From assembly GCA_903844815.1 (NCBI GenBank), contig CAIMVD010000309.1:2504-66503 (forward strand): a stretch of DNA of 64,000 nucleotides, given 5' to 3'. The stretch is from an uncultured Bacteroidota bacterium (GTDB lineage Bacteria; Bacteroidota; Bacteroidia; Bacteroidales; VadinHA17). Made by a program: the position numbers and the translations under genes. Positions 36,133-59,414 of this stretch are shown piece by piece. The stretch's first letter is position 1. Each line of letters opens with the position of its first letter. The notes under the pieces are model-generated. The model was not told the DNA's origin and made no database searches. It worked only from the letters and a program-made list of their open reading frames with translations.

Positions 36133-36146
36133 ATAAATAAAAAAAG

Positions 36147-39038
36147 ATGAATTACTTCCTTGAAAAAATAGCCGGATCATTATACTCCGAGTTTGGTAAC
36201 ACCCTTAACCGCCACTGCCTCGTATTCCCAAGCAGACGGGCAGGGCTATACCTGATTAAATACCTCGCCGCGGGACTTGAAAAGCCTGTATGGGCACCAC
36301 CGGTAATGACAATCAACGACCTGTTCCGTTCATATACCCCGCTTCAGACTGCAGGAAACGAGACACTTCTTTTTGAACTTTACAAGATCTACCGGAAAAT
36401 AAAGCATTCTCCCGTAAGCTTCGATGATTTCTTCTTCTGGGGCGATATGCTCCTGAACGATTTTGACGATGTTGACAAATATCTTGTTGATGCTTCTCTG
36501 TTATTCAGGAATATCAGGGATATTAAGGAGATTGACAATCTGTTCGGAGGTTTAACTGAAGAACAGGTATCGATAATTAAAAAGTTTTGGGTGAATTTCG
36601 AACCTGATAAGGTCACCAACGAAAAAACAGGATTCATCAGCATTTGGTCAATCCTTTTTGAGATTTATCAGAGTTTCAAAACCTCTTTAAGGCAACAGAA
36701 CCTCGCTTATGAAGGGATGATCTTCCGTGAACTGGCAGAAGATAATAGCAGGGATCTCATTGCAGGCACTGGCTGGGACATGGTTCATTTCATAGGATTC
36801 AATGCCCTGAATGAATGTGAGAAAACTGTGATGAAGAGGCTTAAAAAGTCAGGAAAGGCCAGGTTTTACTGGGATTATGACACCTCGTACATTAAGGATG
36901 GAGAGCATAATTCAGCAGGATTGTTCATGCGTATCAACCTGAAGACTTTTGGCAACGACATGCCTGAGGATTGGAATTATAATACAATGCTGTCATCATC
37001 GGCGGGAACAGCCAGGCGACGTGTAATTGCAACTTCGTCGGATGTAGCCCAGGTTAAGCTGGTGCCGCGCCTTTTGGAGGAGCTTCAGGGACAGTCACTT
37101 GAAAAAATGCACCATACTGCTGTAATACTTGCTGACGAGAACCTGATTGTCCCTGTCCTGACCAGCCTTCCTGAAAATACAGGAGATATTAACATCACAA
37201 TGGGCTACCCGCTGAAGGAGACACTGGTTTACACACTGATAAAGCAACTGATGGATCTTCAGCTAAAAGCAACAATTAGTGAAGAGGTCCGGATTTTCAG
37301 CTGCAGGGAGGTTACAGCCATACTGAAACATCCGTTGATAACGGTTATTGACACTGAATCGAACGGCAAAATACTTGAACATATTACGCAAAATAACCTG
37401 GTCTGGATTCCGTCAGTTAAATTTTCAGGACCTGATCATTTTGAACGTATCTTCATAAAACCGGAGTCCCCGATTCATTTGTCAGCTTATTTTAAAGATA
37501 TTATGTCGCTCATTGCCCCTGGCACTGAGGAGGAAAATGAAACCGAAAGCAGGCAGGGCATTCGTGTAAATATTATTAATGAATTTATTTACAGGGTAAT
37601 ATTATCAATTAATAAGCTTGAATCAATTATTGACAGCATTGATGTCAGTCTGAATACCGTCACCTACATCAGAATCCTCGACAGGATGCTTCGGATGCAG
37701 TCGGTTCCGTTTTCAGGAGAACCCTTGTCAGGTGTTCAGATTATGGGGATTCTCGAAACCAGGGCACTTGATTTTAAAAACCTTATAATACTGTCAGTTA
37801 ATGAGGGAGTTATGCCGGCTATCTCATCAGGTTCATCATATATCCCTTTCAGCATCCGCGAAGCCTTCGGGCTTCCATCGGTAAACCACCAGGAATCAAT
37901 TTATGCTTATCATTTTTACAGGCTTCTGCACCGTGCCGAAAATGTGACTTTTGTATATAATTCCAATCCTGAGGGAATGAAAAGCGGCGAAATGAGCAGG
38001 TTTCTAATCCAGATGAAATACGATGAAAATGCAAGACCGGAATTTCAGGATCTCAGGTTTGAGATAAAGACCCTCGGATCTATACCGCAACAACTTGAAA
38101 GGACCGGAGAACATACCCGAAGGCTGATATCACGTTTTACAGGAACGGGCAGGCTGTTATCGCCTTCGGCAATAAACATGTGGCTTAGTTGCAGGATGAA
38201 GTTTTTCTACCGCTATGTTAACAACCTGAAGGAACCTGAAACAGTTACAGCCGACATCGATCCTGCAGCTCTCGGAAATATCCTTCACGAGAGCATGAGG
38301 AGCCTGTACAATGACTATCGCGGGCAGGTCGTTTCCGGAGAAATATTGGCCTCCATGCTAAAGGATAAAAAACTCTTGCCGGAAATAGCGGGCAGGGCAA
38401 TTTCTGAGAAATTCAGGGATGGAAGCAAAACTATTATCAGCGGTAGTGAATTGATTGTAAGGGATATTCTGGTAGAGTACATCTCAAGGATACTACGTTC
38501 TGATAAAGCGCTTGCTCCCTTTGCCATTCTTAATCTTGAGGATAGCTTCAGCTTTCAATTGCCGGTTGTATCGGGAGAAGCTAATATTAATATCACAACA
38601 GGCGGGCAGGTTGACCGCATAGATAACCTCAGGGGTGTTACAAGAATAGTCGACTACAAGACCGGAGCAGTTGCCGACAGCATTGCACTGATCGACGACC
38701 TTTTCACTGAGGACAGGAAAAAGGAGGCCGATGCCTGGCTCCAGACCCTGCTTTATTGTGAAGCCTGGCTGGTGAATAACCCCGGAACCATAGTGATGCC
38801 TTCAGTTTATAAAATAAAGAAGATGGGCAGAGTGAGCATAGATAATTCACTAAAGCTAAAGACCGACCGTACAGCCGAAGTGTCTGTTACTGATTACTCT
38901 GCAGTAAGAACTGAGTTTATGGATGGTCTTGCCGGTGTCGTTAATACAATTTTCAGCAGCCAGGAACCTTTTACGATGACCTCCGACGCCTGGGGCAAAT
39001 GCGGATACTGTCCTTACAAAGGATTATGCCTGCGATAA
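36147..39038 (+). CDS. PD-(D/E)XK nuclease family protein (AddB-like) with putative 4Fe-4S cysteines
   Basis: VFPSRRA, MGILETRALDF, LSPSAI..WLSC, GQVDRID..IVDYKTG, CGYCPYKGLC. Confidence 0.9.
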   Translation: MNYFLEKIAGSLYSEFGNTLNRHCLVFPSRRAGLYLIKYLAAGLEKPVWAPPVMTINDLFRSYTPLQTAGNETLLFELYKIYRKIKHSPVSFDDFFFWGDMLLNDFDDVDKYLVDASLLFRNIRDIKEIDNLFGGLTEEQVSIIKKFWVNFEPDKVTNEKTGFISIWSILFEIYQSFKTSLRQQNLAYEGMIFRELAEDNSRDLIAGTGWDMVHFIGFNALNECEKTVMKRLKKSGKARFYWDYDTSYIKDGEHNSAGLFMRINLKTFGNDMPEDWNYNTMLSSSAGTARRRVIATSSDVAQVKLVPRLLEELQGQSLEKMHHTAVILADENLIVPVLTSLPENTGDINITMGYPLKETLVYTLIKQLMDLQLKATISEEVRIFSCREVTAILKHPLITVIDTESNGKILEHITQNNLVWIPSVKFSGPDHFERIFIKPESPIHLSAYFKDIMSLIAPGTEEENETESRQGIRVNIINEFIYRVILSINKLESIIDSIDVSLNTVTYIRILDRMLRMQSVPFSGEPLSGVQIMGILETRALDFKNLIILSVNEGVMPAISSGSSYIPFSIREAFGLPSVNHQESIYAYHFYRLLHRAENVTFVYNSNPEGMKSGEMSRFLIQMKYDENARPEFQDLRFEIKTLGSIPQQLERTGEHTRRLISRFTGTGRLLSPSAINMWLSCRMKFFYRYVNNLKEPETVTADIDPAALGNILHESMRSLYNDYRGQVVSGEILASMLKDKKLLPEIAGRAISEKFRDGSKTIISGSELIVRDILVEYISRILRSDKALAPFAILNLEDSFSFQLPVVSGEANINITTGGQVDRIDNLRGVTRIVDYKTGAVADSIALIDDLFTEDRKKEADAWLQTLLYCEAWLVNNPGTIVMPSVYKIKKMGRVSIDNSLKLKTDRTAEVSVTDYSAVRTEFMDGLAGVVNTIFSSQEPFTMTSDAWGKCGYCPYKGLCLR

Positions 39039-40657: not shown

Positions 40658-41038
40658 TTACCTCATCGCCACAATCATTGCTCCAGTTATATATGCTGCC
40701 AGCCACCAGCCATATGCTATAACCGAGTATAGGTGAAGAGAAGGCGAAATCTGGCTATCTGCTTCATTTCTGAGGCGGGATTTCCAAATAAGTATTGAGT
40801 CGATCAGCATACCAGCAAGCGATGAATAGCCCAGTATGCCGTGTATTGAAAATGGTCCCTTTGAGGAACCGATGATCATACAGATAGTGGCAGTGATATC
40901 AAGTATTACACCAATTGTAAGGAAGGTAAGTACTCTCTTACCAGCCTTTTTTGTCTTTCTTTCCGAATATATGAAGATTGAATAACAGATAAGAGCAAGA
41001 TTAACTATTGTGGTTCCGGCGATAAGAATTGGTTTCAT
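40658..41038 (-). CDS. small four-TM membrane protein (resembles TIGR03987/HsmA-like family)
   Basis: LALICYSI...G...DITAT..M...HGILG pattern; -7 box TATCTTTG at 41063-41070. Confidence 0.6.
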   Translation of the reverse strand: MKPILIAGTTIVNLALICYSIFIYSERKTKKAGKRVLTFLTIGVILDITATICMIIGSSKGPFSIHGILGYSSLAGMLIDSILIWKSRLRNEADSQISPSLHLYSVIAYGWWLAAYITGAMIVAMR

Positions 41039-41198
41039 GGTGGTTGGTTAAAAATTCAGGGGCAAAGATAGGAATTTTTATCTTTTCGTAGAGTCGGGAG
41101 TCGGAAGTTGGGAGTCGGGCCTCCAAAATCTTGTCTTCTCTCCCCTGTTAATTTGTTATATTTGTGAGATATTGATTGATTTTAAAAAACTAAATTGC

Positions 41199-41618
41199 AT
41201 GGATGACCAGGACATTAGATGGCTGCAACGCTTTAGCAACTATAAAAAAGCGTTATTGCAGCTCCAAAAGGCCGTAACCCTGGCCAATGAAAGAAGCCTG
41301 ACCGAAATAGAACAGCAAGGGCTGCTTAAGGCTTTCGAATTCACTCATGAACTAGCATGGAATGTTATGAAGGATTTCTTTGAATACCAGGGAAATGTTT
41401 CAATAAAGGGTTCACGCGATGCCATAAGAGAAGCTTTTGCAACAGGCCTTGTTGAGGAAGGTGAAATTTGGATGGATACAATAAAAAGCAGGGTACAAAC
41501 AGTACATGCTTACGACGAAAGCACAGCCAGCGAAATCGCGGCAAAGGTAATTGAAAGGTATTTTCCTGTTTTTATCGGTTTTAGAGACAAAATGGAAAGT
41601 TTGACAGAAGGGAATTAA
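41199..41618 (+). CDS. HEPN-domain (HI0074-like) toxin
   Basis: FEFTHELAWNVMK; RVQTVHAY = Rx4HxY; -7 box TATATTTG at 41157-41164. Confidence 0.9.
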   Translation: MDDQDIRWLQRFSNYKKALLQLQKAVTLANERSLTEIEQQGLLKAFEFTHELAWNVMKDFFEYQGNVSIKGSRDAIREAFATGLVEEGEIWMDTIKSRVQTVHAYDESTASEIAAKVIERYFPVFIGFRDKMESLTEGN

Positions 41619-41619
41619 T

Positions 41620-41943
41620 ATGCCATACGGACTTAACGAAAATACTATCAAGGCGATTCATACAATATTCGCAAGTTATCCCGACATCGATGAAGTTATT
41701 TTATATGGTTCGCGGGCAAAAGGCAACTACCGCCCCAACTCAGATATCGATCTTACCATAAAGGGAGAAAATCTTAATTTAACTACTCAGTTCAAAATAG
41801 AAACTGAATTAGATGACTTGCTTTTGCCATATAAAATAGATTTGTCCATTTACAATAGTATTGAAAACCAGAATTTGACAGACCATATTTTGAGAGTAGG
41901 TATTGTTTTTTACGAAAAAGAGATGGCAAATAGAGGGAAATAG
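41620..41943 (+). CDS. minimal nucleotidyltransferase (MNT) antitoxin
   Basis: LYGSRAKGNYRPNSDIDL = GSx10DxD; adjacent to the HEPN gene. Confidence 0.92.
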   Translation: MPYGLNENTIKAIHTIFASYPDIDEVILYGSRAKGNYRPNSDIDLTIKGENLNLTTQFKIETELDDLLLPYKIDLSIYNSIENQNLTDHILRVGIVFYEKEMANRGK

Positions 41944-42163: not shown

Positions 42164-45100
42164 ATGAAATTCAAACTGCTCCAGCTTAAAAAAGTCAGGG
42201 AAAACCTCATTGCATCGGAAAAAACGGAAGATAAGCATTCCGGCAGACGTGATTTTATCCGTACCATGGGACTTGGATTATTGTCGCTGAATCCTGTTGC
42301 AAGGACTTTCAGGGCAATAAATAATCAGCCATTCGATATAAGGATGAGCAATGACAGGTTTTCAGTATCCAGGAACGGATCCGTAGAATGGGAAATTTCC
42401 CGTGGTTTTTTCGAAAAGGGATTTTCACTTGCACTTGAAACAGGGGAGGAGAGTTACAATCTCTCTGCTGATAGGTTGATTGTAAACAACTCAACACTGG
42501 GGTTTTCGCTCGATGCGGATATTTACACAGTGGAAGGCAGATGGGTCATGGATCTTAAAATTCCGGGCCTCGGAATTGATCAGAAGGTTGACTTTCTTGA
42601 ATGGCTCGATAAAAACTCAACAGCCTCCGGAGATGCTGCCTTCGGCAGGCAAAGGATAGTGTTGAATTCGGGCGACGCAATAGAATGGGAGGGGAACTGT
42701 CCTGTGACCCTCGATGCCGGATGGAAAATGGCTGTGAAGAGCGAAAACGGAATTTCCTTCTGCATAAACGGGAACGATTACAGCAACAGCGATATACTGC
42801 TTGAACCCTATGGGGGACAGGCTGATTCATTTCTGACTTCCGTCTCCCGCGGCTCCTTGAAAATTACGGCTCCTGGTTTTAAAGGATGGGAAGAGTTCAT
42901 TTCCGCATTAAACTTTTATGACGGCAATAATATCTCTGTGTACGGTTCAGACCCTGATCTGCATGCTGTTGCCGCAGTAAATGGCAGCGGATCTGCATTT
43001 AAGGCATTGTGGGTCACTCAGAAGGATGGTTATCTCCAGTACAGCCCTTCATCAGGATCGGAGGAGAAATTCATTTTTGCGCCTTATTTTTGGTATTCGG
43101 AATACAGGGACGATAATGCTCCTCAATTTTATCTTGCCGGCAGGCTGAAGGAAAAAGAACAATGGGTCTCAGGTCGTCTTGGCTCGATGAAATTTGCCAA
43201 TGGTGCCGGATATCCCGGTTTTGAGGCTTTCGGATTTCAAAATACGATTACCAGGCACATCTGTGAGCTTCTGTTGCAGTCATTCAATCCGGTGGTTGCG
43301 GGAGCCGTTACTCTTCCGTTTATGTTCCCGGAGGCAATGGCAGTACGCATAAATTCTTCAGGTAACGTTCCGGATGAGGATGAAAATAAGTTATTTGTGG
43401 AGGAAGGAAATGACGAATTAAGAGATATCGTCCAGGACATCCCACGTAACCAGAGACAGGTTAATACCCAGAAGCAGGTCAATATCCAAAGGCAGCCTGC
43501 CGCTTCATCAGTTTCTCAGATGAAAATAAACTTCCGGGAAGTAAGGCTTGAACCCAGACGGGCAATAAAGATAAGTCTGTTACGACCTGAAGATCTTATT
43601 CAGCTCGACTTCGAGTTTCATAATTTTGGCTTTTCAGGCGGGGGACAGGGAGGTTTTCTACAGCTGGATGACAGCAGTCAGAAAGGAGTAATGATCGTTC
43701 ACTTTCCAACACAGCACACTCTCGAAGAAGCATGGTTTGAAACAGGCAAAATCCCCGCAACAGGCAAGGAAGAGCCCATAGTACTTCCTGCACGGCAGAT
43801 CAGGGCGCGCAAGAGCAGGCTTGTTTACGAACTTGCTGCCGGTAGCGCGGGTTTTCCCCTTATGCTTGAAGAATTGCTCGACTGGTCAAGATTTAGCCTG
43901 AGAGTTCATCCCAGGGCTTACATTAAGCTTCCTTCACTTCTTAAGAGGAGGTCTTATACGGCTGGCACTGCAAGTCAGAAACGGGTGAAAACAGCCGACA
44001 ACATTATCGACCGGAAACAGGGTTCACTGGATTATCAGTTGAGGCTGATGGAGAGAAAAAGGGTGGTTGATCAGGATGAATATTTTATAAACAGTGAAAA
44101 TGCTGTCAGGCTTTTTCACAATGATATTGCACCAACCGTAGCACCTTCATTTAATTTTGCAAATTTTTCGAAGGACTGGCTGAAACCCGGTCCTGTTCCC
44201 GATGACTGCACATCTATTGAAGCTCCCGCCTTAATGTACATCTCGCCTAACCAGATTAACGATTTCGTTCACAGCCGGGCTTTGAAGTCTTTTGAGACCG
44301 AGGTGGCAGAATCGCCGGATATGATCTCAAAGCTGAGGGTTTATGATAAACAGACGGGTGGGCAGAAGGGCTCTGTTACCGAGCTCTGGCATACAAAACT
44401 GGGTGTAAGGCTTCGTGATGGCGGTATAAGTACCTCAAGTCTTCAGAACTTCAAAACAATAAGGGTATTGTGGGCCTTTGAGGCTGATGAGGATTATAAA
44501 TACCAGGCACCACTTTATAAGCCATTCATGACCTCACTTGATGCCTCCGACAGGCAGGTTCTTGTACATCAGACATCGAACTTCAGTGAAAAGTTCACAC
44601 CCGTGCCTGTTCCGGTTAAGAGCCTGATGCTGACAACTCTGGGAGCATACCTCAACTGGCATGTTTTCTTTCGTCTGCCGCCTGAGTATACAAATAACCT
44701 TAATATTATTGAATGGCAGCACCTTGCCACCCTGGGACGCGATCATTATGTGAAAGTTGTAAGGGAAGGGTATCTCTTTCCTTTCGGTCATAAAGCTGCC
44801 CTGGTCAAGATCACCGAGAGAAAATTCCATAATGAGACCCGTGCGGCAATAAACCGGCAGAGAATGTATGTTGTAATCCTTGAGAAAGAGGTGGAATACA
44901 GGCGCACTGACCCGGATAATGTATTCATTGAGTTTCCGTTCGAAAAGATCAGGATAGTAAATGATTATACTCCTGACATCGACCATCCTTCGGGTTCAAC
45001 CCTTGCCACTTTCAGCAATAAGAAAATTATTTTCAGGCTCACCGGAACTAAAGACAATGAACCTGCTGAAAACGTCTCATATAACTTTTATATCTGCGTC

Positions 45101-47035
45101 GGGGGAGGGAAATTCATGTTCGACATCGAAGGTATCGATAAAGAAGGTTTTGAGCATAAATTCAGGATCCCTCTCGTCTTTGTAGAAAACATAATCGGCC
45201 GTACGAAAGACAATGTTGATACTATCGTTGCAAAGTACAATGAGAAGGCAGAAGAGGCTGGTACTTCAAACCTAAACGGGCAGAAAATCGCGTTTGCGGA
45301 ATGCCTCGTCGACGGGGATACGGCCTTTGAGACTAAGTCGGTGACCTTTAACGGACAGTACTATCCTGCTAAAGGCATCCCCGATCTGAAGTTTCACCCT
45401 AAAATGAAGAAGGCAAACATCTATCTCAGGCAGGTGGAAGAACTTACCGGAAAACGTGAAGCTGTGCAGATCTCACTGACCGACGACAGCAATCAGGGCC
45501 ATGTTTTTGCCGCTGTAACAGGAGCAAAAGTCGATTTTACAGGAGGATCGGACAAAGCCGGAGGATTCCTCTCACCCAATATGGATATTTCGGCTCTCAG
45601 CCGTCTGCAGGGGCCGGTTGGCGGAACAATGGATAACTGTAAAAACCTTAAATTCAATGCTGAAGAATTTTTCAAGTCGGTCTCCCTGCCATCAGCAAAA
45701 ATATTCGGCTGTATCGATGTTTTCAGCCTGCTGAAAATCGTCGACCTGGGTGGAACTTTCGGTTCTTATACCTCGGTGATAGGATCACTCAAAGATGAAA
45801 TGAACGGCATAAAGAGCGAGATTCTTTCACTCGAAAATCAGGCCAGAGAAACGGCCTCAGATCTGAGCAGCTCAATTCTCGCAAAAAAAGAAGAACTTAA
45901 GATAAAAGTGGCTAAACTATTGGAGGCCATTAACAGTAATGTTCCAAGAATCCCGGGATTCAAGACTTATTTTACCGATGAAGCCTTCTATGCCGAATAC
46001 CGCTGGCAACCCGAAATGAAAGGATCGTCGATAGAAGTCTTTCCCGGAATGCTTACAGTAAATGTAACTGATCCGGCAAAGGCCCTTGAGGTTATAACCC
46101 TTCTTGAGAAGCCTTTTGATATGTCGCAGCAGGCAAAGATGAACGGAAGCGCCAGGTTCAGTAATTTTGAAGTTGTTGTGGCAAAGATGATAGGCGTTAG
46201 TTTCAAATACCTTGAATTCAAAACGGGATCATCACAGAAGACCGATGTGAAAGTGGAACTGGCAACTCCTGTTCCGATTTCGTTCATGGGGCCCCTGAGC
46301 TTTGTGAACAGCCTCCAGAGCATAATTCCCTCATCAGGATTTGCAGGCGACGGCCCTTATGTTGATCTTTCGCCAACAGGTGTAACCGCAGGATTCTCAA
46401 TTAGCATTCCCAGTATTGAGGTCGGCATCTGCAGCATAGCGAATATCAGCCTTGGAGCCAGTGTAACCCTTCCCTTTACTGGAGACCCGCTTCTCCTTGC
46501 CTTTAATTTCTGTACCCGTGAAAATCCTTTCCTCCTTACAGTCTCCTGTTTCGGTGGTGGAGGATTTTTCAGGCTGGTAACCTCCCTGAAACAGATTGAG
46601 ACAGTGGAGGCTGCCTTTGAATTCGGGGCTTCAATGTCGCTTAATGTGGGTGTTGCCTCAGGAAGCGTCTCGGCAATGGGCGGGATCTATTTTAAATCGG
46701 AACACGCAGTAATAAACGGTTACGATGCAAATATTGTAGTCCTTACGGGTTATCTTAGGCTTAACGGCAGGCTTTCAATTATCGGGCTCATTACGGTGTC
46801 GCTGGAGTTCTATCTGGCATTCACTGCCAACTTTGTCAGCAAGAACGGAAAAGATGTTGTAGACAAGCTTGTTGGGGAGGCTACACTTAAAGTAAAGGTT
46901 GAGGTTTTATTCTTCAGTAAAACTGTATCAGTAACTGTAAGGCGTGAACTCCAGGGTGCTGACGCCGATCCGAAATTCACCCAGATGATACTTCCGGAAG
47001 ACTGGGAAGAGTATTGCCTTGCATTTGCCGGTTAA
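42164..47035 (+). CDS. giant uncharacterised protein (1623 aa) with twin-arginine signal-like N-terminus and Gly-rich beta-strand C-terminus
   Basis: Long uninterrupted ORF; SGRRDFIRTMGLGLLSL; Q-rich linker; coiled-coil segment; alternating-hydrophobic C-terminal strands; function not recognised. Confidence 0.85.
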   Translation: MKFKLLQLKKVRENLIASEKTEDKHSGRRDFIRTMGLGLLSLNPVARTFRAINNQPFDIRMSNDRFSVSRNGSVEWEISRGFFEKGFSLALETGEESYNLSADRLIVNNSTLGFSLDADIYTVEGRWVMDLKIPGLGIDQKVDFLEWLDKNSTASGDAAFGRQRIVLNSGDAIEWEGNCPVTLDAGWKMAVKSENGISFCINGNDYSNSDILLEPYGGQADSFLTSVSRGSLKITAPGFKGWEEFISALNFYDGNNISVYGSDPDLHAVAAVNGSGSAFKALWVTQKDGYLQYSPSSGSEEKFIFAPYFWYSEYRDDNAPQFYLAGRLKEKEQWVSGRLGSMKFANGAGYPGFEAFGFQNTITRHICELLLQSFNPVVAGAVTLPFMFPEAMAVRINSSGNVPDEDENKLFVEEGNDELRDIVQDIPRNQRQVNTQKQVNIQRQPAASSVSQMKINFREVRLEPRRAIKISLLRPEDLIQLDFEFHNFGFSGGGQGGFLQLDDSSQKGVMIVHFPTQHTLEEAWFETGKIPATGKEEPIVLPARQIRARKSRLVYELAAGSAGFPLMLEELLDWSRFSLRVHPRAYIKLPSLLKRRSYTAGTASQKRVKTADNIIDRKQGSLDYQLRLMERKRVVDQDEYFINSENAVRLFHNDIAPTVAPSFNFANFSKDWLKPGPVPDDCTSIEAPALMYISPNQINDFVHSRALKSFETEVAESPDMISKLRVYDKQTGGQKGSVTELWHTKLGVRLRDGGISTSSLQNFKTIRVLWAFEADEDYKYQAPLYKPFMTSLDASDRQVLVHQTSNFSEKFTPVPVPVKSLMLTTLGAYLNWHVFFRLPPEYTNNLNIIEWQHLATLGRDHYVKVVREGYLFPFGHKAALVKITERKFHNETRAAINRQRMYVVILEKEVEYRRTDPDNVFIEFPFEKIRIVNDYTPDIDHPSGSTLATFSNKKIIFRLTGTKDNEPAENVSYNFYICVGGGKFMFDIEGIDKEGFEHKFRIPLVFVENIIGRTKDNVDTIVAKYNEKAEEAGTSNLNGQKIAFAECLVDGDTAFETKSVTFNGQYYPAKGIPDLKFHPKMKKANIYLRQVEELTGKREAVQISLTDDSNQGHVFAAVTGAKVDFTGGSDKAGGFLSPNMDISALSRLQGPVGGTMDNCKNLKFNAEEFFKSVSLPSAKIFGCIDVFSLLKIVDLGGTFGSYTSVIGSLKDEMNGIKSEILSLENQARETASDLSSSILAKKEELKIKVAKLLEAINSNVPRIPGFKTYFTDEAFYAEYRWQPEMKGSSIEVFPGMLTVNVTDPAKALEVITLLEKPFDMSQQAKMNGSARFSNFEVVVAKMIGVSFKYLEFKTGSSQKTDVKVELATPVPISFMGPLSFVNSLQSIIPSSGFAGDGPYVDLSPTGVTAGFSISIPSIEVGICSIANISLGASVTLPFTGDPLLLAFNFCTRENPFLLTVSCFGGGGFFRLVTSLKQIETVEAAFEFGASMSLNVGVASGSVSAMGGIYFKSEHAVINGYDANIVVLTGYLRLNGRLSIIGLITVSLEFYLAFTANFVSKNGKDVVDKLVGEATLKVKVEVLFFSKTVSVTVRRELQGADADPKFTQMILPEDWEEYCLAFAG

Positions 47036-47061
47036 CAAATTAATGTTTAAACATCACTGAT

Positions 47062-50000
47062 ATGTCGCAGGAAATAATTTTTACAGCTTTGCCAAACGGT
47101 CGAACTGAAACTTCAGGAAAACAATACCTGAAACTCTCGGTTTTTACTACTATTCAGATTAAGACTCCCGGCGAATCAAAGCTTGCTGATTATGAAGATA
47201 TCCTAAACTGGCCTGATAAGATTACAGGCGCCGTATTCAAATTCAGGGCCGGAAATGGCAGCTTGATTGATGCAACCCTCGATGCCGGCAAAATTGACGC
47301 CTCGCTTTATAAAAGTATTTTTCACAAGGATATCAGGCTTAAGGGTTACCTGCCTGAAAATTTTACCAATCTCCGGATAAATTCCTTCCCGGCACAAAGC
47401 ATTAAGGATTATCTTCTTAAGAATTACCTACAGACAGCCATTGAAAGCCCTACCAGGCTGGTAAGCGCCGAGAAATTCATCGACGAAGAACGCTTTGGTG
47501 TTATTTCGCGCTACACAATTGATGAAAATGAGTTTGAACGAGCTAAAATCCAAAAAACAAGGATACAGCCGGCGAAATCAAAGCTTCTGATAAAACGTCC
47601 GGGGGGGGTCGACGCAATGACTGATTCAGGAGCTAATCTGAAGTTTACAAAGATGCCTCTGAAGATGGATCCCAGGACTGACTTTACCCTGTTCCGGAAT
47701 TTTCACCGCACTGAAAAATGGAAGAGAAAAGCAGAACCACTGAAGATTAAAAAGCCGGAATTCGAATTCCATCAGATAACTGCAATACTGAACAGTTACC
47801 CTATGCTGATGAGAAAGCTGGGATTTATCCTTGATTTTACAATCCCATATGACAGCACACTTGCAAAAATCGGAGGAATAAGCCTTGTTCCCTCATCAAT
47901 AGCCTTTGAAGAAAGTGAAACAGTAGTCTCTGTGCCAACGACGGCATATGCAATTACCGATGACGGCTTTTTTACCGATGACAATGAGGGGGCAATATTT
48001 AAAAGAGGTTTTGTAAAAATAAACACCGATGATTTTGCGGTTATCCAGATAGATGCTGATGGTGCGGCTATCAAGGCGCATAACCTTGCCGAGAACAAAA
48101 CGAAACAGATTGCCCGATATCTTGGTGATAAGGCTTCCTCCAGAAGTTTCATAGTGGAGGATGATTCCGAGGATATTAAATTTTCTGAACCTCCTGAGGA
48201 TGAAGGCTTGCCTTTTATTCGTTCCGCCGGTATAGCCATTACTAAAAATTCAATGGCTGAGCATCTTACACTCGGTATTCAACGCAATTTAAACCTGCGA
48301 AAGATCTTTACAGATCAGACTCCCGAGAATAAAATTATGGTCCCGGGCCTCAGGTTGAAATTGCCTGACGACAAGTTGTATTCCTCCGATATTATTCAGG
48401 GTTACAGAATGGATATAGCCTATGAAAGCGATCCGGAAAAATGGTACTCGCTTCATTTCAGAAAGGATAGCTATAGCTGGTACGACGAATCATCTGTGGC
48501 ACACCCTGTTGACGGTATTGAACCCGATGAGGGGTATATTGAGCTTGGCCTTACAGAGGACCCCGATGATCCCTCGGATATGTTTGTGTCGGACACTATT
48601 GCACGATGGGAGGGCTGGAGTCTCGCAGTTGGTAAGCCGGGATTCTCCATAAACCATGCTGATGATAGTGAAACTGTACCTAAGGATGGAGTAAAACGCG
48701 ATTTTGTACATAAAAGCAGGGCAGAAGAAGCAAAGAAATACGCTTTCGATCCCGACCTTCAGTTCAGGGTAAATGCGGCCTCTTCAATAGTGCCGGGGAC
48801 CTTGCCAAAGCTACGTTTTGGCAAAGATTACCGTATTCGCATCCGTGCCGTGGATCTTGCCGGAAACAGCCTTCCTGTTACTTCAGGTACAACCGACCAG
48901 GACCTTACTACTCAGAAGAATATCCGTTATCTGCGCTATGAACCGCTTGCAAGCCCAATAGTACTCGTGGGCAACGAACTCAGGGACGGTGAGTTTCTCG
49001 AAAGAATGGTTATCAGGAGCAACTTTGACCAGAGTGTTTCGCAATATGAGGTTAGTCATCCGATAGGAGGAAAGGCCATGGAGGTTTATTCGCAGCGCTA
49101 CCTGCTACCACCAGACAATAGCCAGGCAATGGCGGAAACACATGGCATGATTGAAAAGGCTTTTACGGGAAATCCTTCGGCCGCAAAGGAAATTTATGAT
49201 CTCATAGCCGCGCACGAAGGGAAATATGATCGTGAACATGCAACCGTTGAAAAAGTATACAAGCCTTCAGAAGTTGAAGTAATTTATCTTCCGGATCCGA
49301 TGGCTGCAGGAGTCGCGTTTTTTGTTGCCGACGGATTCGCGACGACCCATTCGCAGGAATTTTTCAAGCCGAGGCTCTTCGGTTTTTTTACCAACGAAGA
49401 AATTATGCCGGAAAATACCAACGCTGAAATCCCTCCCGACTGGTACAATGCCAAAGCTGTCACAATAAGGCTTGAAGAGGGTGAACTTTCGGCTGACTGG
49501 AATTCATCGGCAAGGATATTGACAGTATTTTTACCTAAAGGTCTGAGAACGAGGATTAAATTCAGCACCTTCTGGCGCGATAAGGATATTAAACAGTTGT
49601 CGGCATTCTGGAGCATGATTAAGGAACAATCGCCTTCAAACATAAGCGAACTTGAAAGGCTGATGGCAGCAGGTCAGCACTGGATGATAAGCCCCTCAAG
49701 AGAATTTGAACTTGTACATGCAACCCAGCAGCCTGTTGAGGAACCTGTTTTGAAGGCCCTCATCCCGGTGCGCGACTTTGACGACACAACTGCGGATTTA
49801 AATGTCAGGTTCCAGGTTCATGGTGAGAGTACCGATAAAGTTGAAATCCAGGCAAAATGGACCGAGCCGCTTGATGACGGTATCTCTGTCTCGGTTAAAG
49901 AGAGCCAGGGCAGAAATTCGATTAGGGATATAAACGTGAACTATCACGATGACGTGGTCACTCGAGGTACAATTCCTGAAATTCCTAAGGTTGAACTGAA

Positions 50001-51444
50001 GACAAATCCAAAATTGATGTTTCAGCCACACAGTGAGCTTAAAATGAGGACTAAGAGCGAATTCAGAGTGAATCCTCAGCCGGAAGCAACAAAGGTGGGC
50101 AGTTTGTTTAAGGTTCAGGATGAGGGGTTCGAAAAACTGCAAAAGGCTGACTTTGCGGCTTCAAAAACTCTTGTATCCAGCCTGCGGTTCGAAATTGAAG
50201 CCTCAAAATTCAGTTTTCTTCGTAATATTAATCTAAGGATACAGCCATTAAAACAAAACTTTGGCGACACAAGGCACAGGTGGGTTGATTACAACATTCA
50301 GGCGACAACCAGGTACCGCGAATATTTTGCAAAGATTCTTACACAGGATGATAAACTTCTGGTTTCACGTGAAAGCAACTGGATAGAACAGATCAATATT
50401 CTGAGCACTTCAAGGCCTAAACCTCCTGAAATTGATTATATTATACCAACATTTGAATGGATCAGGACACAGGATGCGAATAATATCCAGCACCGGCGCA
50501 TGGGAGGAGGTCTGAGAATTTATATAAAACGTCCATGGTTCTCATCGGGAGAAGATGAGATGCTTGCCATTCTTCTTCCTCCTTCTGCTGAAAGTGCCGG
50601 GGAAAAAGCCCCGGTCCGGGCAACGCTTGCGGCACCACGCCCTGTCTATACTCCCTATTATACAAACTGGGGCCTCGATCCCCTTCATACTTCAACAGTG
50701 CCTGATAATTTCAGTCCTTCAGAGAATGATTTCAGGTACAGCCCTCTCAAAGTATCAAATATCCAGTATCCTGATCCAACCAGCATCAGGACCGATGTTG
50801 TGGCTTATCCCGTTAAATTCGATAAAGAGAAGCAGATGTGGTACTGCGATATTGCAATTAACCCTGGCAAAATGTATTTGCCATTTATAAAACTGGCCCT
50901 GGCAAGGTATCAGCAGCATTCTGTTAGAAAAGGAAATGATGATGTGTGTTTATCGCCTGTGGTTTTTGCTGATATGATGCAGCTTATGCCCGACCGGTCT
51001 GCCACCCTGGCCTTTAAGAATGATGAGAATAATTCGAGGTTTACAGTGACCATAAGCGGAGTAATTTACAATGGATTGGAAAGGGGCACCAGATCTACAG
51101 ATACGGTTATTAAAGTCTCTTTTGTCGACACAAGGCTAGCTCAGCCTGTTTATGGATTAATTGACGATAACACTACTCCTCAAAATCTTATCGGTGAAGC
51201 TTATGATATTCAAATTCTGCCTGATAATATTACCGGTAACCGTTTTACTATATCGCATGAGTTCAAGTTGCCGGGCGAGTATAAAAAAGCGCCTTTTGAA
51301 GTTGTCATCAGGGAGTTTGAACAGATTCCGCTTAAGACAAGAGATGTCGACAATAAGTACAATAGCAGGATTGAGCGTTCAGAGGAAACAAATAAGCTTA
51401 TCTATGCTGATGTGTTTAAGATAAACAGTTCGGAGAAGAAGTGA
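47062..51444 (+). CDS. giant uncharacterised protein (1460 aa), no signal peptide
   Basis: Long ORF 26 bp after the previous gene; contains FN3/Ig-like strand motif YRIRIRAVDLAGNS; function not recognised. Confidence 0.85.
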   Translation: MSQEIIFTALPNGRTETSGKQYLKLSVFTTIQIKTPGESKLADYEDILNWPDKITGAVFKFRAGNGSLIDATLDAGKIDASLYKSIFHKDIRLKGYLPENFTNLRINSFPAQSIKDYLLKNYLQTAIESPTRLVSAEKFIDEERFGVISRYTIDENEFERAKIQKTRIQPAKSKLLIKRPGGVDAMTDSGANLKFTKMPLKMDPRTDFTLFRNFHRTEKWKRKAEPLKIKKPEFEFHQITAILNSYPMLMRKLGFILDFTIPYDSTLAKIGGISLVPSSIAFEESETVVSVPTTAYAITDDGFFTDDNEGAIFKRGFVKINTDDFAVIQIDADGAAIKAHNLAENKTKQIARYLGDKASSRSFIVEDDSEDIKFSEPPEDEGLPFIRSAGIAITKNSMAEHLTLGIQRNLNLRKIFTDQTPENKIMVPGLRLKLPDDKLYSSDIIQGYRMDIAYESDPEKWYSLHFRKDSYSWYDESSVAHPVDGIEPDEGYIELGLTEDPDDPSDMFVSDTIARWEGWSLAVGKPGFSINHADDSETVPKDGVKRDFVHKSRAEEAKKYAFDPDLQFRVNAASSIVPGTLPKLRFGKDYRIRIRAVDLAGNSLPVTSGTTDQDLTTQKNIRYLRYEPLASPIVLVGNELRDGEFLERMVIRSNFDQSVSQYEVSHPIGGKAMEVYSQRYLLPPDNSQAMAETHGMIEKAFTGNPSAAKEIYDLIAAHEGKYDREHATVEKVYKPSEVEVIYLPDPMAAGVAFFVADGFATTHSQEFFKPRLFGFFTNEEIMPENTNAEIPPDWYNAKAVTIRLEEGELSADWNSSARILTVFLPKGLRTRIKFSTFWRDKDIKQLSAFWSMIKEQSPSNISELERLMAAGQHWMISPSREFELVHATQQPVEEPVLKALIPVRDFDDTTADLNVRFQVHGESTDKVEIQAKWTEPLDDGISVSVKESQGRNSIRDINVNYHDDVVTRGTIPEIPKVELKTNPKLMFQPHSELKMRTKSEFRVNPQPEATKVGSLFKVQDEGFEKLQKADFAASKTLVSSLRFEIEASKFSFLRNINLRIQPLKQNFGDTRHRWVDYNIQATTRYREYFAKILTQDDKLLVSRESNWIEQINILSTSRPKPPEIDYIIPTFEWIRTQDANNIQHRRMGGGLRIYIKRPWFSSGEDEMLAILLPPSAESAGEKAPVRATLAAPRPVYTPYYTNWGLDPLHTSTVPDNFSPSENDFRYSPLKVSNIQYPDPTSIRTDVVAYPVKFDKEKQMWYCDIAINPGKMYLPFIKLALARYQQHSVRKGNDDVCLSPVVFADMMQLMPDRSATLAFKNDENNSRFTVTISGVIYNGLERGTRSTDTVIKVSFVDTRLAQPVYGLIDDNTTPQNLIGEAYDIQILPDNITGNRFTISHEFKLPGEYKKAPFEVVIREFEQIPLKTRDVDNKYNSRIERSEETNKLIYADVFKINSSEKK
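51334..51403 (+). repeat. left direct repeat (attL-like), 70 bp identical to 62778-62847
   Basis: aagacaagagatgtcgac...aataagcttatct, exact match; weaker similarity continues ~60 bp further. Confidence 0.95.
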
Positions 51445-51797: not shown

Positions 51798-53372
51798 ATG
51801 GCTAAGAAGAACGGAAACGGGACTGAAGAACCTTTAGAGAAACAACTTTGGAAAACAGCTGATAAACTTCGTAAAAACATAGATGCGGCAGAGTATAAAC
51901 ATGTTGTGTTGGGATTGATCTTCCTGAAATACATAAGCGATTCGTTCGAGGAATTATTTTCCAGATTAAAAGCTGAAGAAGCGCAGGGAGCCGATCCCGA
52001 AGACCGCGATGAATACAAAGCCGAAAATGTATTTTTTGTGCCGCAGGATGCCCGTTGGAATTATTTGCAGTCGAAAGCAAAGCAACCTGAGGTAGGTAAG
52101 TTTGTTGACGATGCAATGGATGCAATTGAAAAGGAAAATGCATCACTGAAAGGTGTTTTGCCTAAAGTGTTTGCAAGGCAAAATCTCGACCCAACCAGTT
52201 TGGGCGAATTGATCGATTTGGTTGGAAACATTGCTCTGGGCGATGCCAAAGCGCGCAGCGCCGATGTGCTGGGTCATGTGTTCGAATATTTTCTGGGTGA
52301 GTTTGCTTTGGCCGAAGGAAAACAAGGCGGACAGTTCTATACTCCGCGCAGTATCGTCGAGTTATTGGTGAAAATGCTCGAACCTTACAAAGGACGGGTA
52401 TTCGACCCATGCTGTGGCTCCGGTGGTATGTTTGTGCAATCCGAAAAGCTTGTGCTCGAACACCAGGGACGGGTAAACGATATTTCGATTTACGGACAGG
52501 AAAGCAACCAAACCACCTGGCGTTTGTGCAAAATGAACCTGGCCATCCGGGGTATCGACAGCTCTCAGGTGAAATGGAACAACGAAGGTTCGTTCCTGAA
52601 CGATGCACACAAAGACCTGAAAGCCGATTACATCATTGCCAATCCGCCGTTTAATGTGAGCGATTGGGGCGGTGATTTAATGCGTACCGACGGACGCTGG
52701 CAATATGGCGTACCACCCACCGGGAACGCCAATTTTGCATGGATGCAGCATTTTATTTACCACCTTTCTCCAACCGGACAAGCCGGAGTCGTTCTGGCAA
52801 AGGGAGCTTTAACATCCAAATCATCGGGCGAAGGCGAAATACGGAAAGCCCTGATTGAAGCCGGTTTGATAGACTGTATTGTAAACCTGCCTGCCAAATT
52901 ATTCCTGAACACACAAATTCCTGCCGGTTTGTGGTTTTTACGCCGCAACCGGGCTTCGACAGGCTCAGCCAACGGTTACCGCGACCGCAGCAACGAAATA
53001 CTCTTTATTGATGCCCGGAATTTAGGATTCCTGATAAACCGGCGAACCCGGGAACTTTCTCCGGAAGATATTTCGAAGATTACAGATACTTACCACAAAT
53101 GGCGATCGTTGCCTGAGCTTGTCGAAGGCAGGGATTACGGAGATATTCCAGGGTTCTGTGCTTCTGCTCCAATTGACAAAGTCCGGGAACTGGATTATGT
53201 GGTTACTCCGGGACGTTACGTGGGATTACCCGATGATGAAGATGATTTTGATTTTAACGAACGGTTCTCTGCTTTAAAAACCGAACTGGAAGAACAAATA
53301 AATGAGGAAACTGCACTAAATATGATTATTGCAGAAAATCTGGCAAAGATTAATCTAAATGAAGGAAAGTAA
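51798..53372 (+). CDS. hsdM: type I R-M methyltransferase subunit
   Basis: [25 protein letters not shown] (motif I), ANPPFN (motif IV). Confidence 0.96.
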
Positions 53373-53445
53373 AATAAATCCCATTTTTGCTACAAACCTC
53401 CCACGTAGAACGTAGGGCTTCACAAAAACAGGATAGCACAAAAGT

Positions 53446-54324
53446 ATGGAAAATATTGAACTCATAGAAATTGAAAACCGGATTTTTACCATTCGGGGTG
53501 TTCAGGTAATGATCGACAGGGACCTGGCTGAGATGTATCTGGTTAGCACAAAGGTTCTGAATCAATCAGTGAAACGAAATATCGATCGATTTCCTGCCAT
53601 GTTTCATTTTCAGCTTTCGGAGAAGGAAAAATTTGAACTGGTCACAAATTGTGACCGGTTCGAAAGTCTGAAACATTCATCTGTTAATCCATACGCTTTT
53701 ACAGAACAAGGTGTCGCCATGCTTTCTGCTGTACTTCGCAGCGAAACTGCAATCAAGGTAAGTATCCGGATTATGGAAGCGTTTGTCGAAATGCGGAAAT
53801 TGGTTTTAGGAAATGCCGCATTGTTTCAACGACTCGACCGGATTGAATTCAAACAACTGGAATCCGATCATAAATTTGAACAGGTTTTTAAAGCGCTCGA
53901 AAGCCGTGAACAGTTGCCCGAAAAAGGCATTTTTTACGATGGACAGGTGTTCGACGCCTGGATATTTATCTCCGACCTGATTCGTGGCGCCAAACAATCG
54001 CTCATTCTGATCGACAATTATGTGGACGATACCGTACTTAATTTGTTTACCAAACGCGATAAAGGAGTAACTGCCACTATCCTTACCAAAAACATTAGCA
54101 AGCTATTGGCTACCGATCTGCGAAAACACAATACCCAATACGAACCTATTACCCTGAAAGAGTTTACCGCCGCCCACGACCGCTTCCTGATTATCGACGA
54201 AACAGAACTCTACCATCTTGGAGCTTCGTTGAAAGACCTGGGCAAAAAATGGTTTGCCTTCTCAAAAATGGATGCCCAGACTCCGGAAATGTTGAACCTC
54301 TTAAAGATCAAAATCAATGAGTGA
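53446..54324 (+). CDS. ORF6N-domain DNA-binding protein with C-terminal PLD-like (HDRF) domain
   Basis: IRGVQVMIDRDLAEMY, PYAFTEQGVAMLS, LIDNY, HDRFLIID, YHLGASLKD. Confidence 0.85.
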   Translation: MENIELIEIENRIFTIRGVQVMIDRDLAEMYLVSTKVLNQSVKRNIDRFPAMFHFQLSEKEKFELVTNCDRFESLKHSSVNPYAFTEQGVAMLSAVLRSETAIKVSIRIMEAFVEMRKLVLGNAALFQRLDRIEFKQLESDHKFEQVFKALESREQLPEKGIFYDGQVFDAWIFISDLIRGAKQSLILIDNYVDDTVLNLFTKRDKGVTATILTKNISKLLATDLRKHNTQYEPITLKEFTAAHDRFLIIDETELYHLGASLKDLGKKWFAFSKMDAQTPEMLNLLKIKINE

Positions 54325-55564
54325 GTGGAAAGAAACTGAAATTGGACGAATACCAATTGATTGGGACTTGAAGACGGTTGATGAAATTAAATCCCCAGAA
54401 AAGAAATCAATAATTTCAGGGCCATTTGGTTCAAATATCAGTGCAAAATATTTTGTAGAGGCTGGTGTACCTGTAATTAGAGGGAATAATTTATCTCTTG
54501 ATATAAATAGGAAATTTAATGACTCCGGTTTTGTATTTATAACTGATGAAAAAGCGAATGAATTAGGTACTTGGGCAGAAAAGAATGACATAATTTTTAC
54601 AGCCGTTGGCACAATTGGGCAGGTTGGAATTCTAACAGGCAAAGAATCATTTCAAAAATATATTATCTCTAATAAACAGCTTAGGCTAAGAATAAATAAG
54701 GAAATAATTGAACCTCTTTATGCATATTATTGGTTTGCAAGTCCAACAATGGCAGATATAATTCTACAGAGAAATACAGGTTCAAGTGTTCCTTTAATCA
54801 ACCTCTCTGTTTTAAAATCTCTTTTAATTCCTTTACCTCCTCAAAATGAAAGAGTTAAGATATTGAGTATCTTAAAAAGTTTAGATGATAAAATAGACCT
54901 GCTGCACCGCCAAAACGCCACATTGGAAGCCATGGCCAAAACGCTTTTCAGACAGTGGTTTGTGGAGGAAGCGAAGGAGGATTGGGAGGAATTTAAAGTG
55001 AGTAGAATTGCAGAACACTTGAAGGTTAATGTAATACCATCAAAACAACCATTAGCTTTTTACCATCACTATAGTTTGCCTGCTTTTGATGCAGGTCAAA
55101 ATCCTATTAGAGAGACGGGAATTGAAATTCTAAGCCATAAGTACAGAGTTTTTTCTGAATCAATCTTGGTTTCGAAGTTGAATCCAAGATCCCCCAGAAT
55201 TTGGGCAATTGGAACAGACCTAAAAGACAATTCAATCTGTTCAACTGAATTCCAGGTATTTAAACCAAAAGACAACCTCTTATTTGGATATTTATTTTTT
55301 CTATTGAAATCCGATGACGCAAAAAATGCATTAGAAATGGCTGCATCAGGAACGAGCGGAAGTCATCAAAGAGTCAGACCTGAGGATATATCAAACATAC
55401 CATTCGCATTGCCAAATATTGATCTAGCAATTGAATTCTCAAAAAAAGTACAACCACTTCTAAATAAAATCAACAAGAACCAAACTCAAGCCCGCACCCT
55501 CACGGCCCTTCGGGATACTTTATTGCCGAAGTTGATGAGCGGGGAGGTTAGGGTGGAAATGTAA
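54317..55564 (+). CDS. hsdS: type I R-M specificity subunit
   Basis: Two TRDs separated by LDDKIDLLHRQNATLEAMA; C-terminal LRDTLLPKLMSGE. Confidence 0.95.
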   Translation: MSEWKETEIGRIPIDWDLKTVDEIKSPEKKSIISGPFGSNISAKYFVEAGVPVIRGNNLSLDINRKFNDSGFVFITDEKANELGTWAEKNDIIFTAVGTIGQVGILTGKESFQKYIISNKQLRLRINKEIIEPLYAYYWFASPTMADIILQRNTGSSVPLINLSVLKSLLIPLPPQNERVKILSILKSLDDKIDLLHRQNATLEAMAKTLFRQWFVEEAKEDWEEFKVSRIAEHLKVNVIPSKQPLAFYHHYSLPAFDAGQNPIRETGIEILSHKYRVFSESILVSKLNPRSPRIWAIGTDLKDNSICSTEFQVFKPKDNLLFGYLFFLLKSDDAKNALEMAASGTSGSHQRVRPEDISNIPFALPNIDLAIEFSKKVQPLLNKINKNQTQARTLTALRDTLLPKLMSGEVRVEM

Positions 55565-55595
55565 TAAAAACTATTAACCATTAAACTAACAATTT

Positions 55596-55973
55596 ATGCC
55601 ATTAGAGCCCACTTGGATAGACGCTACAGAAATTCTTATAAAAGAGGTTAAGGGAATTTTTAACAGAAAAGCAAAGAGAAAAGAAAAAGCCTTCGAGGCA
55701 ATTGAAGCAATTAATAGAGCAGCAAACAGAACATCAATATACATTTCCAAGAATAAAAAAGGCACATACAAATCGAATTTAGAACTTTCAGATTTATGGT
55801 TAGAGACAGCCACAAAAGTTCGAGACCTTGATGTTTCTTTGTATAACCAGTTACTATATAAAGCTGAATACTGGTCAAATCCTGCAAGCTGGAGCGATAA
55901 CGATGTGAAAAAAGCGAAAATTGGATTGTTGGAGATAAAGAGAGCTGCTCAGGAAATACTTAAAAAGAAGTAA
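55596..55973 (+). CDS. hypothetical basic helical protein (125 aa)
   Basis: ORF co-oriented in the R-M operon, 31 bp after hsdS; no motif recognised. Confidence 0.7.
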   Translation: MPLEPTWIDATEILIKEVKGIFNRKAKRKEKAFEAIEAINRAANRTSIYISKNKKGTYKSNLELSDLWLETATKVRDLDVSLYNQLLYKAEYWSNPASWSDNDVKKAKIGLLEIKRAAQEILKKK

Positions 55974-56000
55974 AGATCAATCTAAATTTCCTCTGTCCAC

Positions 56001-56165: not shown

Positions 56166-56228
56166 GAATTAAAGGTCAACGATGTATGGGGTAATGAAAA
56201 AGAATCACAGAAAATAAAAAGAAAATAT

Positions 56229-57487: not shown

Positions 57488-57491
57488 GAAA

Positions 57492-58290: not shown

Positions 58291-58307
58291 AACAAGAAAC
58301 TACAACA

Positions 58308-59411: not shown

Positions 59412-59414
59412 GCT

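Follow-up and report, generated by a model that had tools for sequence, protein, structure and literature searches.

What does a bacterium do with two neighboring genes that together encode 347 kDa of protein (calculated mass) and resemble no described family? The question is raised by contig CAIMVD010000309.1 (GenBank assembly GCA_903844815.1) of an uncultured Bacteroidota bacterium of the VadinHA17 lineage, of which we analyzed a stretch of 64,000 nucleotides, referred to as the window. Gene A (42164..47035, + strand) encodes a protein of 1,623 amino acids (aa) and 180.7 kDa, and gene B (47062..51444, + strand) encodes one of 1,460 aa and 166.2 kDa without a signal peptide; both were read as open reading frames (ORFs) with their translations. 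A spacer of 26 nucleotides (nt) (47036..47061) lies between them. A reading of the letters alone, which we call the original prediction, had described the pair as a candidate exported macromolecular system. Both giant frames were found on the + strand where it placed them, and the translations contain all of the motifs that it cited: in A, SGRRDFIR (residues 26 to 33) followed by TMGLGLLSLNPVA, LRPEDL, ELWHT, WQHLATLGRDHYV with GYLFPFGH behind it, and the terminal WEEYCLAFAG; in B, WEGWSL, LPKLRFGKDYRIRIRAVDLAGNS, and RPWFSSGE.

The answer that we favor, tentatively and at somewhat less than an even chance, is that A and B form an obligate complex that in this lineage would be assembled in the cytoplasm and exported in the folded state by the twin-arginine translocation (Tat) pathway, with B hitchhiking on the signal of A, and that it would act as an accessory module outside the cytoplasm. 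The metagenome runs that hold the locus came from lake water. Ten short contigs inside A and B, with 95 to 100% identity, were found in two metatranscriptome runs; they are at most a weak hint of expression, as carry-over of DNA is possible. Scans for promoters and terminators at the locus gave results at chance level.

An invariant pair in a large unnamed family

A word-indexed homology search returned 184 homologues for A and 269 for B, and those listed were full-length with 40 to 84% identity. Judged by these alignments, A and B are real conserved genes. The source names of the homologues were "hypothetical protein" or coiled-coil artifacts only, the stray names "gas vesicle protein" and "apolipoprotein" being due to coiled-coil matches of the A relatives. 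A scan for related loci with one genome per species gave 70 loci. Using tblastn, B was found directly downstream of A on the same strand at all 58 loci whose contig runs past the 3' end of A; at the 12 of 70 loci where B is missing, the contig always stops inside A. B was also the next gene after A in nine of nine further A-bearing genomes from a sample of the phylum Bacteroidota. The arrangement extends to three of three distant pairs, where the gene after A matches B in Bacillus wiedmannii (BLASTP E value of 1e-144 over the full length), Diaphorobacter (E value of 7e-92), and Cupriavidus metallidurans CH34 (hhalign probability of 100, E value of 7e-87). A large ORF, seen by position alone, adjoins the A relative in Streptomyces, B. 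bombysepticus, and B. pseudomycoides. The original prediction had proposed asking whether homologues occur as a pair, and in the loci examined they always do.

The pairwise divergences of A and B correlate (r = 0.94 over 990 pairs), as expected if the genes are inherited together. Clustering of all flanking ORFs of the related loci revealed no third conserved neighbor of the pair. That A and B are paralogues was ruled out by hhalign (probability of 0.1).

We searched exhaustively with a profile of the A core (residues 460 to 1623) and obtained 4,748 clusters (50% identity) with E values of 1e-3 or lower, 2,670 of which had E values of 1e-30 or lower. The clusters span Bacteroidota, Acidobacteriota, Pseudomonadota, Bacillota, and Actinomycetota, and named members include Haliscomenobacter and a metagenome-assembled genome of Pyrinomonadaceae (Acidobacteriota). 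The distribution is patchy: among 301 sampled Bacteroidota genomes from 144 genera, the core occurred in only 10, which belong to 8 genera. In other phyla, the pair sits on megaplasmids or chromids; a tblastn search of plasmids with a signal-less member as the query gave 24 records, from C. metallidurans CH34, Diaphorobacter, Rhizobium, Sinorhizobium, megaplasmids of the Bacillus cereus group, and Streptomyces. The A-B module is ancient, self-contained, and accessory, the last because of its sparse occurrence among the sampled genomes, the change of its flanks from locus to locus, and its carriage on megaplasmids or chromids elsewhere.

A phage origin of the pair was rejected, since a single related locus was found among 2.9 million viral contigs (IMG/VR). 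This locus (L073, 8001-15330) itself carries A and then B, on a contig that is possibly non-viral.

Two very distant adjacent pairs of giant genes were seen on conjugative plasmids, their second genes being placed by adjacency and size alone. One (L077; Rhizobium ruizarguesonis pRlX3) encodes 2,489 and 2,569 aa and lies beside a SIR2 gene. The other (L078; Sinorhizobium meliloti accessoryA) encodes 2,277 and 1,560 aa and lies beside WYL and N6-methylase genes and a group II intron.

Searches of A and B against Pfam, NCBIfam, PADLOC, and PHROGs returned only noise (DUF4132, E value of 0.15); A matched no Pfam family at an E value of 1 or lower, and neither protein matched a PADLOC-DB v2 protein model at 0.1 or lower. 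Single-sequence and profile searches against PDB sequences gave coiled-coil noise only. The description of the two genes as a unit of uncharacterized giant proteins was thus borne out. A lenient Pfam scan of each relative yielded only coiled-coil families for the 41 A proteins of alignment A2 (Baculo_PEP_C in 21 of 41 and Apolipoprotein in 8 of 41) and nothing recurrent for the 27 B proteins of alignment A3. Among 30 diverse distant relatives, Pfam and NCBIfam showed nothing relevant, with no toxin family and no signature domains of Tc toxins. A search of the ESM Atlas returned unnamed clusters only. Foldseek against the PDB gave no match for A or B at an E value of 1e-3 or lower, with TM-scores of 0.1 or less, and two BFVD rows for A that reached this E value were rejected at TM-scores of about 0.05. 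No description of the family was found in a literature search whose coverage left bioRxiv supplements outside, and the family appears uncharacterized.

The twin-arginine motif of A

Protein A begins with a conserved region of 25 residues (MKFKLLQLKKVR...; 42164..42238, + strand), where alignment A1, made from 19 A sequences, shows the family motif LNLxxLR. It is followed by the twin-arginine motif and a weakly hydrophobic h-region (residues 34 to 46), which occupy 42239..42301 (+ strand) and were delimited from A1 and hydropathy. The Tat consensus near the N terminus, to which PMC6708511 refers, is S/T-R-R-x-F-L-K. In A1, R28, R29, and F31 are invariant. The h-region has 13 residues, has a mean hydropathy of about 1.2, and ends in NP; no 19-residue window in the N-terminal segment of A exceeds 1.6.

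The motif RRxF[LIVMF][KR] was present in 44 of 52 A rows, although their overall identity is only 40 to 70%, and an uncharged h-region ending in Pro after the RR motif was likewise seen in 44 of the 52. RR itself was found in 49 rows, including one (L045) where it occurs by chance in an ORF cut at its 5' end; the 3 remaining rows lack RR and are all 5'-truncated ORFs. The Cytophagales forms of A, which lack the N-domain of about 400 aa, start with RRxxIK and a hydrophobic stretch. The motif is thus kept in close homologues, where the original prediction had asked for it, and its persistence at such identities and in forms without the N-domain argues for selection on Tat recognition. A was also Tat-like in eight of the nine further Bacteroidota carriers, and it has the sequence-level features of a Tat substrate. 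B, in agreement with the original prediction, had a signal-like N terminus in 0 of 47 aligned rows, and none was seen in the nine further carriers.

A signal census of the best 143 cluster representatives, of which 135 were scored and 8 had no locatable core start, showed how this feature is spread over the family: 43 of 65 long forms were Tat-like, versus 11 of 66 short forms, and some of these 11 are false.

Architecture and predicted contact of A and B

Behind the signal, A has a variable N-domain (about residues 55 to 400; 42326..43363, + strand), the least conserved and fastest-evolving part of the protein, with a pairwise divergence of 0.74 versus 0.44 for the core. It is absent from A in Cytophagales, B. 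wiedmannii, and many other forms, and it was not found as a separate shorter protein. A low-complexity linker rich in Q, P, and E (about residues 401 to 465; 43364..43558, + strand) follows as gap-rich, length-variable columns in A1; the Q-rich linker claimed earlier is in its sequence at about residues 425 to 450. The conserved core (about residues 466 to 1195; 43559..45748, + strand) carries QHTLEEA, IEAPxLYISPNQ, ELWHT, and WxHxxTLGRDHYV...FGH as invariant columns in A2.

We modeled residues 460 to 1623 of A with AlphaFold 2 (AF2) from a 41-row alignment, with a mean predicted local distance difference test (pLDDT) score of 65 and a predicted TM-score (pTM) of 0.52. Residues 809 to 1119 form a confident beta-rich core (pLDDT of about 85 to 94). 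It gave no informative fold row in VIA-align, as the lists were taken up by matches to the hairpin and the C-terminal sheet. The "short coiled coil" of the original prediction appeared as a helical hairpin (residues 1198 to 1258; 45755..45937, + strand) with AF2 helices at model residues 739 to 771 and 776 to 799; its Pfam and PDB matches were coiled-coil noise only. It is followed by a Gly-rich amphipathic beta domain (residues 1266 to 1598; 45959..46957, + strand), modeled as a meander of long strands of 18 to 21 residues and then a terminal helix. In the last six strands, a hydrophobic face alternates with a small or polar face, which agrees with the amphipathic character claimed for them. 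The near-invariant C-terminal helix (DPKF..DDWxEYCLAFA; 46967..47032, + strand) has invariant D, P, F, W, Y, C, and A columns, and its motif is also kept in Bacillus.

The shape of this domain recalls a barrel wall. In a wide VIA-align search, about residues 1390 to 1608 aligned to FoxA (Z of 10.9, 200 residues aligned, root mean square deviation [rmsd] of 5.4 Å) and SprA (Z of 10.7). When VIA-align was run on the Foldseek top 1,000, CymA (Z of 12.2) and autotransporter beta domains (Z of about 11) were found, and all 50 top rows were membrane beta-barrels. These Z values are only 3 to 4 above the background quoted for the tool, with rmsd values of 5 to 12 Å, and curved meanders are common.

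Residues 1 to 1185 of B were modeled in AF2 with a mean pLDDT of 60. The sole recognizable element is an FN3-like beta sandwich made of discontinuous segments at about residues 315 to 628, including YRIRIRAVDLAGNS (48004..48945, + strand), found by VIA-align. Its alignment to titin and other FN3 domains (Z of 7.7, rmsd of 3.1 Å, 90 residues, 17% identity) is within the background range, a further VIA-align search gave Z values of 7.3 or less, and Pfam fn3 had no match in B.

As the invariant C terminus of A and the conserved N terminus of B are made successively, we folded residues 1264 to 1623 of A with residues 1 to 620 of B (47062..48921, + strand), using alignments of our own, three runs, and three controls. 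The interface score ipSAE was 0.83, 0.76, and 0.86 in the three runs, whereas the best control gave 0.00; an A-B interaction is thus predicted, in line with the original prediction. In the calibration of this score, 116 of 157 solved complexes attained the mark, as did 2 of 215 mismatched pairs; the calibration is valid only roughly here, because the alignments were our own. At least 77% of the contacts were common to the runs, with a partner pLDDT of at least 77 and 357 to 382 contacts. The predicted interface involves residues 1451 to 1623 of A, which form the terminal helix and the long amphipathic strands, and five segments of B, namely, residues 214 to 246, 331 to 352, 381 to 416, 491 to 532 (with the invariant WEGWSL), and 545 to 583. 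Interface columns were more conserved than the other columns of the segment both in A (mean of 0.85 versus 0.705; 32 of 103 versus 41 of 257 invariant) and in B (mean of 0.779 versus 0.602; 31 of 128 versus 54 of 492 invariant); this check is only partly independent, since burial by itself tends to keep residues conserved. A is thus predicted by the model to bind B through its C-terminal sheet and helix. Such an interface would give a simple reason for the amphipathic sheet, whose conserved face would be covered by B. The free lipid-binding groove suggested by the original prediction does not fit this model, in which that face is buried; the likeness to a barrel wall remains.

Several known systems share single features with the pair. 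Like type Va autotransporters, A has a signal with an extended conserved N-region, a beta-rich body, a helical element, and a C-terminal domain shaped like the wall of a 10- to 12-strand barrel (the BrkA and EspP beta domains have Z values of about 11). Unlike them, it has a Tat-type rather than a Sec-type signal, no Pfam autotransporter match, no terminal aromatic residue (it ends in EYCLAFAG), a conserved helix after the sheet, homologues in Gram-positive bacteria, and a sheet that is predicted to bind B. The pair resembles AsmA/TamB-like bridge proteins in its large size, in the long amphipathic beta sheets, and in a signal or anchor at the N terminus; it differs from them in having no sequence match (Pfam AsmA/DUF490 included), in its patchy rather than core distribution, in its homologues in monoderms, and in the predicted covering of the sheet by B. 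A single weak Foldseek row linked A to TamAB (E value of 8e-3, TM-score of 0.05). Tc (ABC) toxins are likewise giant, signal-less, multi-subunit, beta-rich, patchy, and plasmid-borne in Gram-negative and Gram-positive bacteria, whereas A and B have no Pfam or NCBIfam match to TcA, TcB, or TcC (VRP1, TcdB mid domains, RHS repeats), Foldseek rows to TcdB2-TccC3 are at TM-scores of about 0.04, and there are two genes instead of three. At the sequence level, the hallmarks of autotransporters, Tc toxins, and PADLOC systems that were looked for are absent from the pair.

What the complex may do

In the reading that we favor, A and B would be the two obligate subunits of one complex in a very large, pan-bacterial, unnamed, and patchy family. 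Residues from about 1451 to 1623 of A, the amphipathic sheet and invariant helix, would dock onto the N-terminal half of B. As the C terminus of A and the N terminus of B are encoded 26 nt apart, the two could assemble during synthesis. In this Bacteroidota lineage, A would have acquired a twin-arginine signal together with a variable N-domain and a flexible linker. Because B has no signal, assembly in the cytoplasm followed by folded export through Tat, with B riding on the signal of A, seems the most likely course, and the predicted A-B interaction makes such hitchhiking plausible. Outside the cytoplasm, the complex may serve as an accessory, non-housekeeping module, possibly antagonistic or associated with the envelope, and the variable N-domain may be the part that meets the outside. 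We infer a role at the interface between the cell and its surroundings, rather than in the core envelope machinery, because the pair is patchy and carried on plasmids and because A has a fast-evolving N-domain and a flexible linker.

The closest parallel is that of the Tat hitchhikers, such as Escherichia coli hydrogenase-2 (HybO-HybC), DmsAB, and PaoABC, in which one subunit carries the twin-arginine signal and the adjacent partner is signal-less. This concept (PMC6708511; PMC4273604) implies that the partners assemble before export. For A-B, the signal-less partner is observed and the binding is predicted. The known hitchhikers are redox enzymes that carry cofactors and reach about 150 kDa; A-B, in contrast, has no recognizable cofactor domain, is more than twice that size, and is signal-less in many lineages.

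Several findings weigh against export of the complex by Tat. The upper range of Tat cargo is given as 150 kDa in section 8 of PMC6708511; A alone and A with B both exceed it, and export of the pair would be unprecedented. Either the limit is wrong, or A alone is exported after B has acted, or the signal is an anchor. TatC was found in the source genome (E value of 4.7e-68) and in 10 of 10 carriers, which does not discriminate, because 299 of the 301 sampled genomes of the phylum also have it. A1 showed no conserved AxA cleavage site after the h-region. LNLxxLR is kept in long forms without the RR or the hydrophobic segment, in B. bombysepticus (L079:13726-15300) and in one Bacteroidota genome (L089), so it may be part of the mature protein, and the signal might escape cleavage or act as an anchor. 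In the census, 55 of 66 short-form representatives and all 4 intermediate forms were signal-less, which suggests that the complex can work without export; the A proteins of B. wiedmannii and Cupriavidus start directly at the core, with no signal. Finally, both AF2 models are middling by their mean pLDDT, and the A-B binding score, obtained with alignments of our own, is a model confidence, not a measurement.

As many distant A forms, including Gram-positive ones, are signal-less, Tat export looks like a lineage-specific addition in the family, judged from the N-terminal sequences. Of the exported system in the original prediction, the conserved Tat motif in close homologues has held up, whereas intrinsic export does not apply to the wider family.

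An unlikely alternative is a binary toxin that forms pores or inserts into membranes. The sheet of A would be a latent transmembrane beta-barrel segment, which B would cover until a target membrane is met, and the N-domain would bind a receptor. This overlaps the favored explanation and adds a commitment to pore formation. It would account for the alignment of about residues 1390 to 1608 of A to membrane beta-barrels alone (FhuA and FoxA at Z values of about 11, next to CymA), for the length and alternating faces of the strands, for the predicted covering of the sheet by B, for the patchy, plasmid-borne distribution that includes the B. cereus group megaplasmids, and for the fast evolution of the N-domain. 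The nearness of these Z values to background, the large rmsd values, and the commonplace curved meander speak against it, as do the B interface, which suffices to explain the hydrophobic face, the lack of a toxin family match in Pfam or NCBIfam, and the signal-less forms, which have no evident release route. A role of A-B in membrane insertion or toxin delivery, as the original prediction had it, is conjecture. A bolder version, which we regard as quite unlikely, would make the family a pan-bacterial class of two-subunit giants; many diderms would export the assembled complex of about 350 kDa via Tat, and B would then free the A sheet for membrane insertion. The result would be a new pore-forming or cell-surface weapon with a lineage-dependent delivery route.

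It is improbable, in our view, that the RR segment is no working export signal and that A-B is cytoplasmic everywhere, with the segment tethering A to the inner membrane face or doing nothing. The size of the pair, far above that of known Tat cargo, the many signal-less relatives, and the retention of the N-terminal motif with or without the RR segment would fit this explanation. It is harder to reconcile with the full consensus and uncharged, Pro-ending h-region in 44 of 52 rows at 40 to 70% identity, or with the consensus being kept again in forms without the N-domain, which argues for selection on Tat recognition.

The neighborhood of the pair raises anti-phage defense, in which a cytoplasmic or membrane-associated A-B would recognize infection and respond with death or arrest of the cell. 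Directly upstream of A is a toxin-antitoxin-like HEPN/MNT pair (41172-41943, + strand), made up of two small genes, the first for a nucleotidyltransferase substrate-binding (HEPN-type) domain and the second for a Pol-beta-type minimal nucleotidyltransferase (MNT) domain, with a single base between the stop codon of one and the start of the other. Downstream of B, family scans showed a type I restriction-modification (R-M) operon split by inserted genes, a nested defense island (51798-62732, + strand). It comprises, all on the + strand, hsdM (51798-53372), an ORF6N/Rha-like gene (53446-54324), hsdS (54317-55564), a PDC-M04A/B pair (DUF3800; 56229-57450), a PD-Lambda-2_B/RmrA-like gene (58308-59411), and hsdR (59415-62732).

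We hold the defense explanation to be hardly probable. The location of the pair between these two elements favors it, as do the neighbors of the very distant giant pairs (SIR2 in Rhizobium, WYL and N6-methylase in Sinorhizobium) and the patchy, self-contained, plasmid-borne nature of the pair. A and B themselves have no PADLOC match, however, and no association with defense islands was found in the related Bacteroidota loci, as judged from 91 ORFs that flank the pair at 38 of these 70 loci. Eleven of the 91 match PADLOC at an E value of 1e-15 or lower and are mostly generic ATPases, helicases, and methylases; a single one is a full-length candidate defense gene (PDC-S01, locus L029). Pfam calls the flanks unrelated housekeeping genes (among others, asparagine synthase, DEAD-box helicases, D-Ala-D-Ala ligase, tRNA synthetases, SecG, and ABC transporters). 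The conserved Tat signal is also hard to square with cytoplasmic sensing.

Very unlikely is a structural or lipid-transfer machine spanning the envelope (AsmA/TamB- or autotransporter-like), with an uncleaved Tat anchor, a linker across the periplasm, and the sheet in or at the outer membrane: the order of signal, domain, flexible linker, beta-rich body, helix, and barrel-like C terminus, the h-region without a conserved cleavage site after it, and weak Foldseek rows that include TamAB, LptD, and OrfX/P47 would suit it, but the core and B are signal-less in Cupriavidus and on Bacillus and Streptomyces plasmids, whose hosts have no outer membrane, the sparse occurrence among sampled genomes is not that of core envelope machinery, A ends in a helix and LAFAG after the sheet instead of a terminal aromatic beta-signal, and Pfam shows no AsmA, TamB, or autotransporter family.

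Some further observations concern the surroundings. At one related locus (L046:6345-9763), genes for a trypsin-like peptidase and a caspase-domain protein (Peptidase_C14) precede the A-B pair, reminiscent of protease-based conflict systems. In the window, a 126-aa ORF (40658-41038, - strand) has a weak partial EamA match (E value of 0.008) and is perhaps a leftover at the border of the inserted region; elsewhere in the window, 27640-28938 encodes a full-length EamA protein. An AddAB-like set (31774-39038, + strand) encodes a UvrD-type helicase (1,096 aa) and a PD-(D/E)XK nuclease protein (963 aa), with a radical SAM gene (35088-36077) in between. At 1672-5156 (+ strand), a gene for a C39-peptidase ABC exporter of the bacteriocin type precedes an ORF of 429 aa, for which Pfam gave no match at an E value of 1e-10 or lower.

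To return to the complex that we favor, the family marks an annotation blind spot, with its thousands of A-core clusters having no family name in the scanned libraries, no solved relative, and no description found. If Tat exports A, or A with B, the accepted limit of about 150 kDa would have to be revised, and the pair would be the largest proposed Tat cargo and a natural test cargo for how the Tat translocase scales. The predicted interface between the C-terminal sheet and helix of A and the WEGWSL region of B offers a concrete experimental handle. For the bacteria that carry the pair, its patchy occurrence and its association with plasmids suggest a part in competition or defense rather than in housekeeping.

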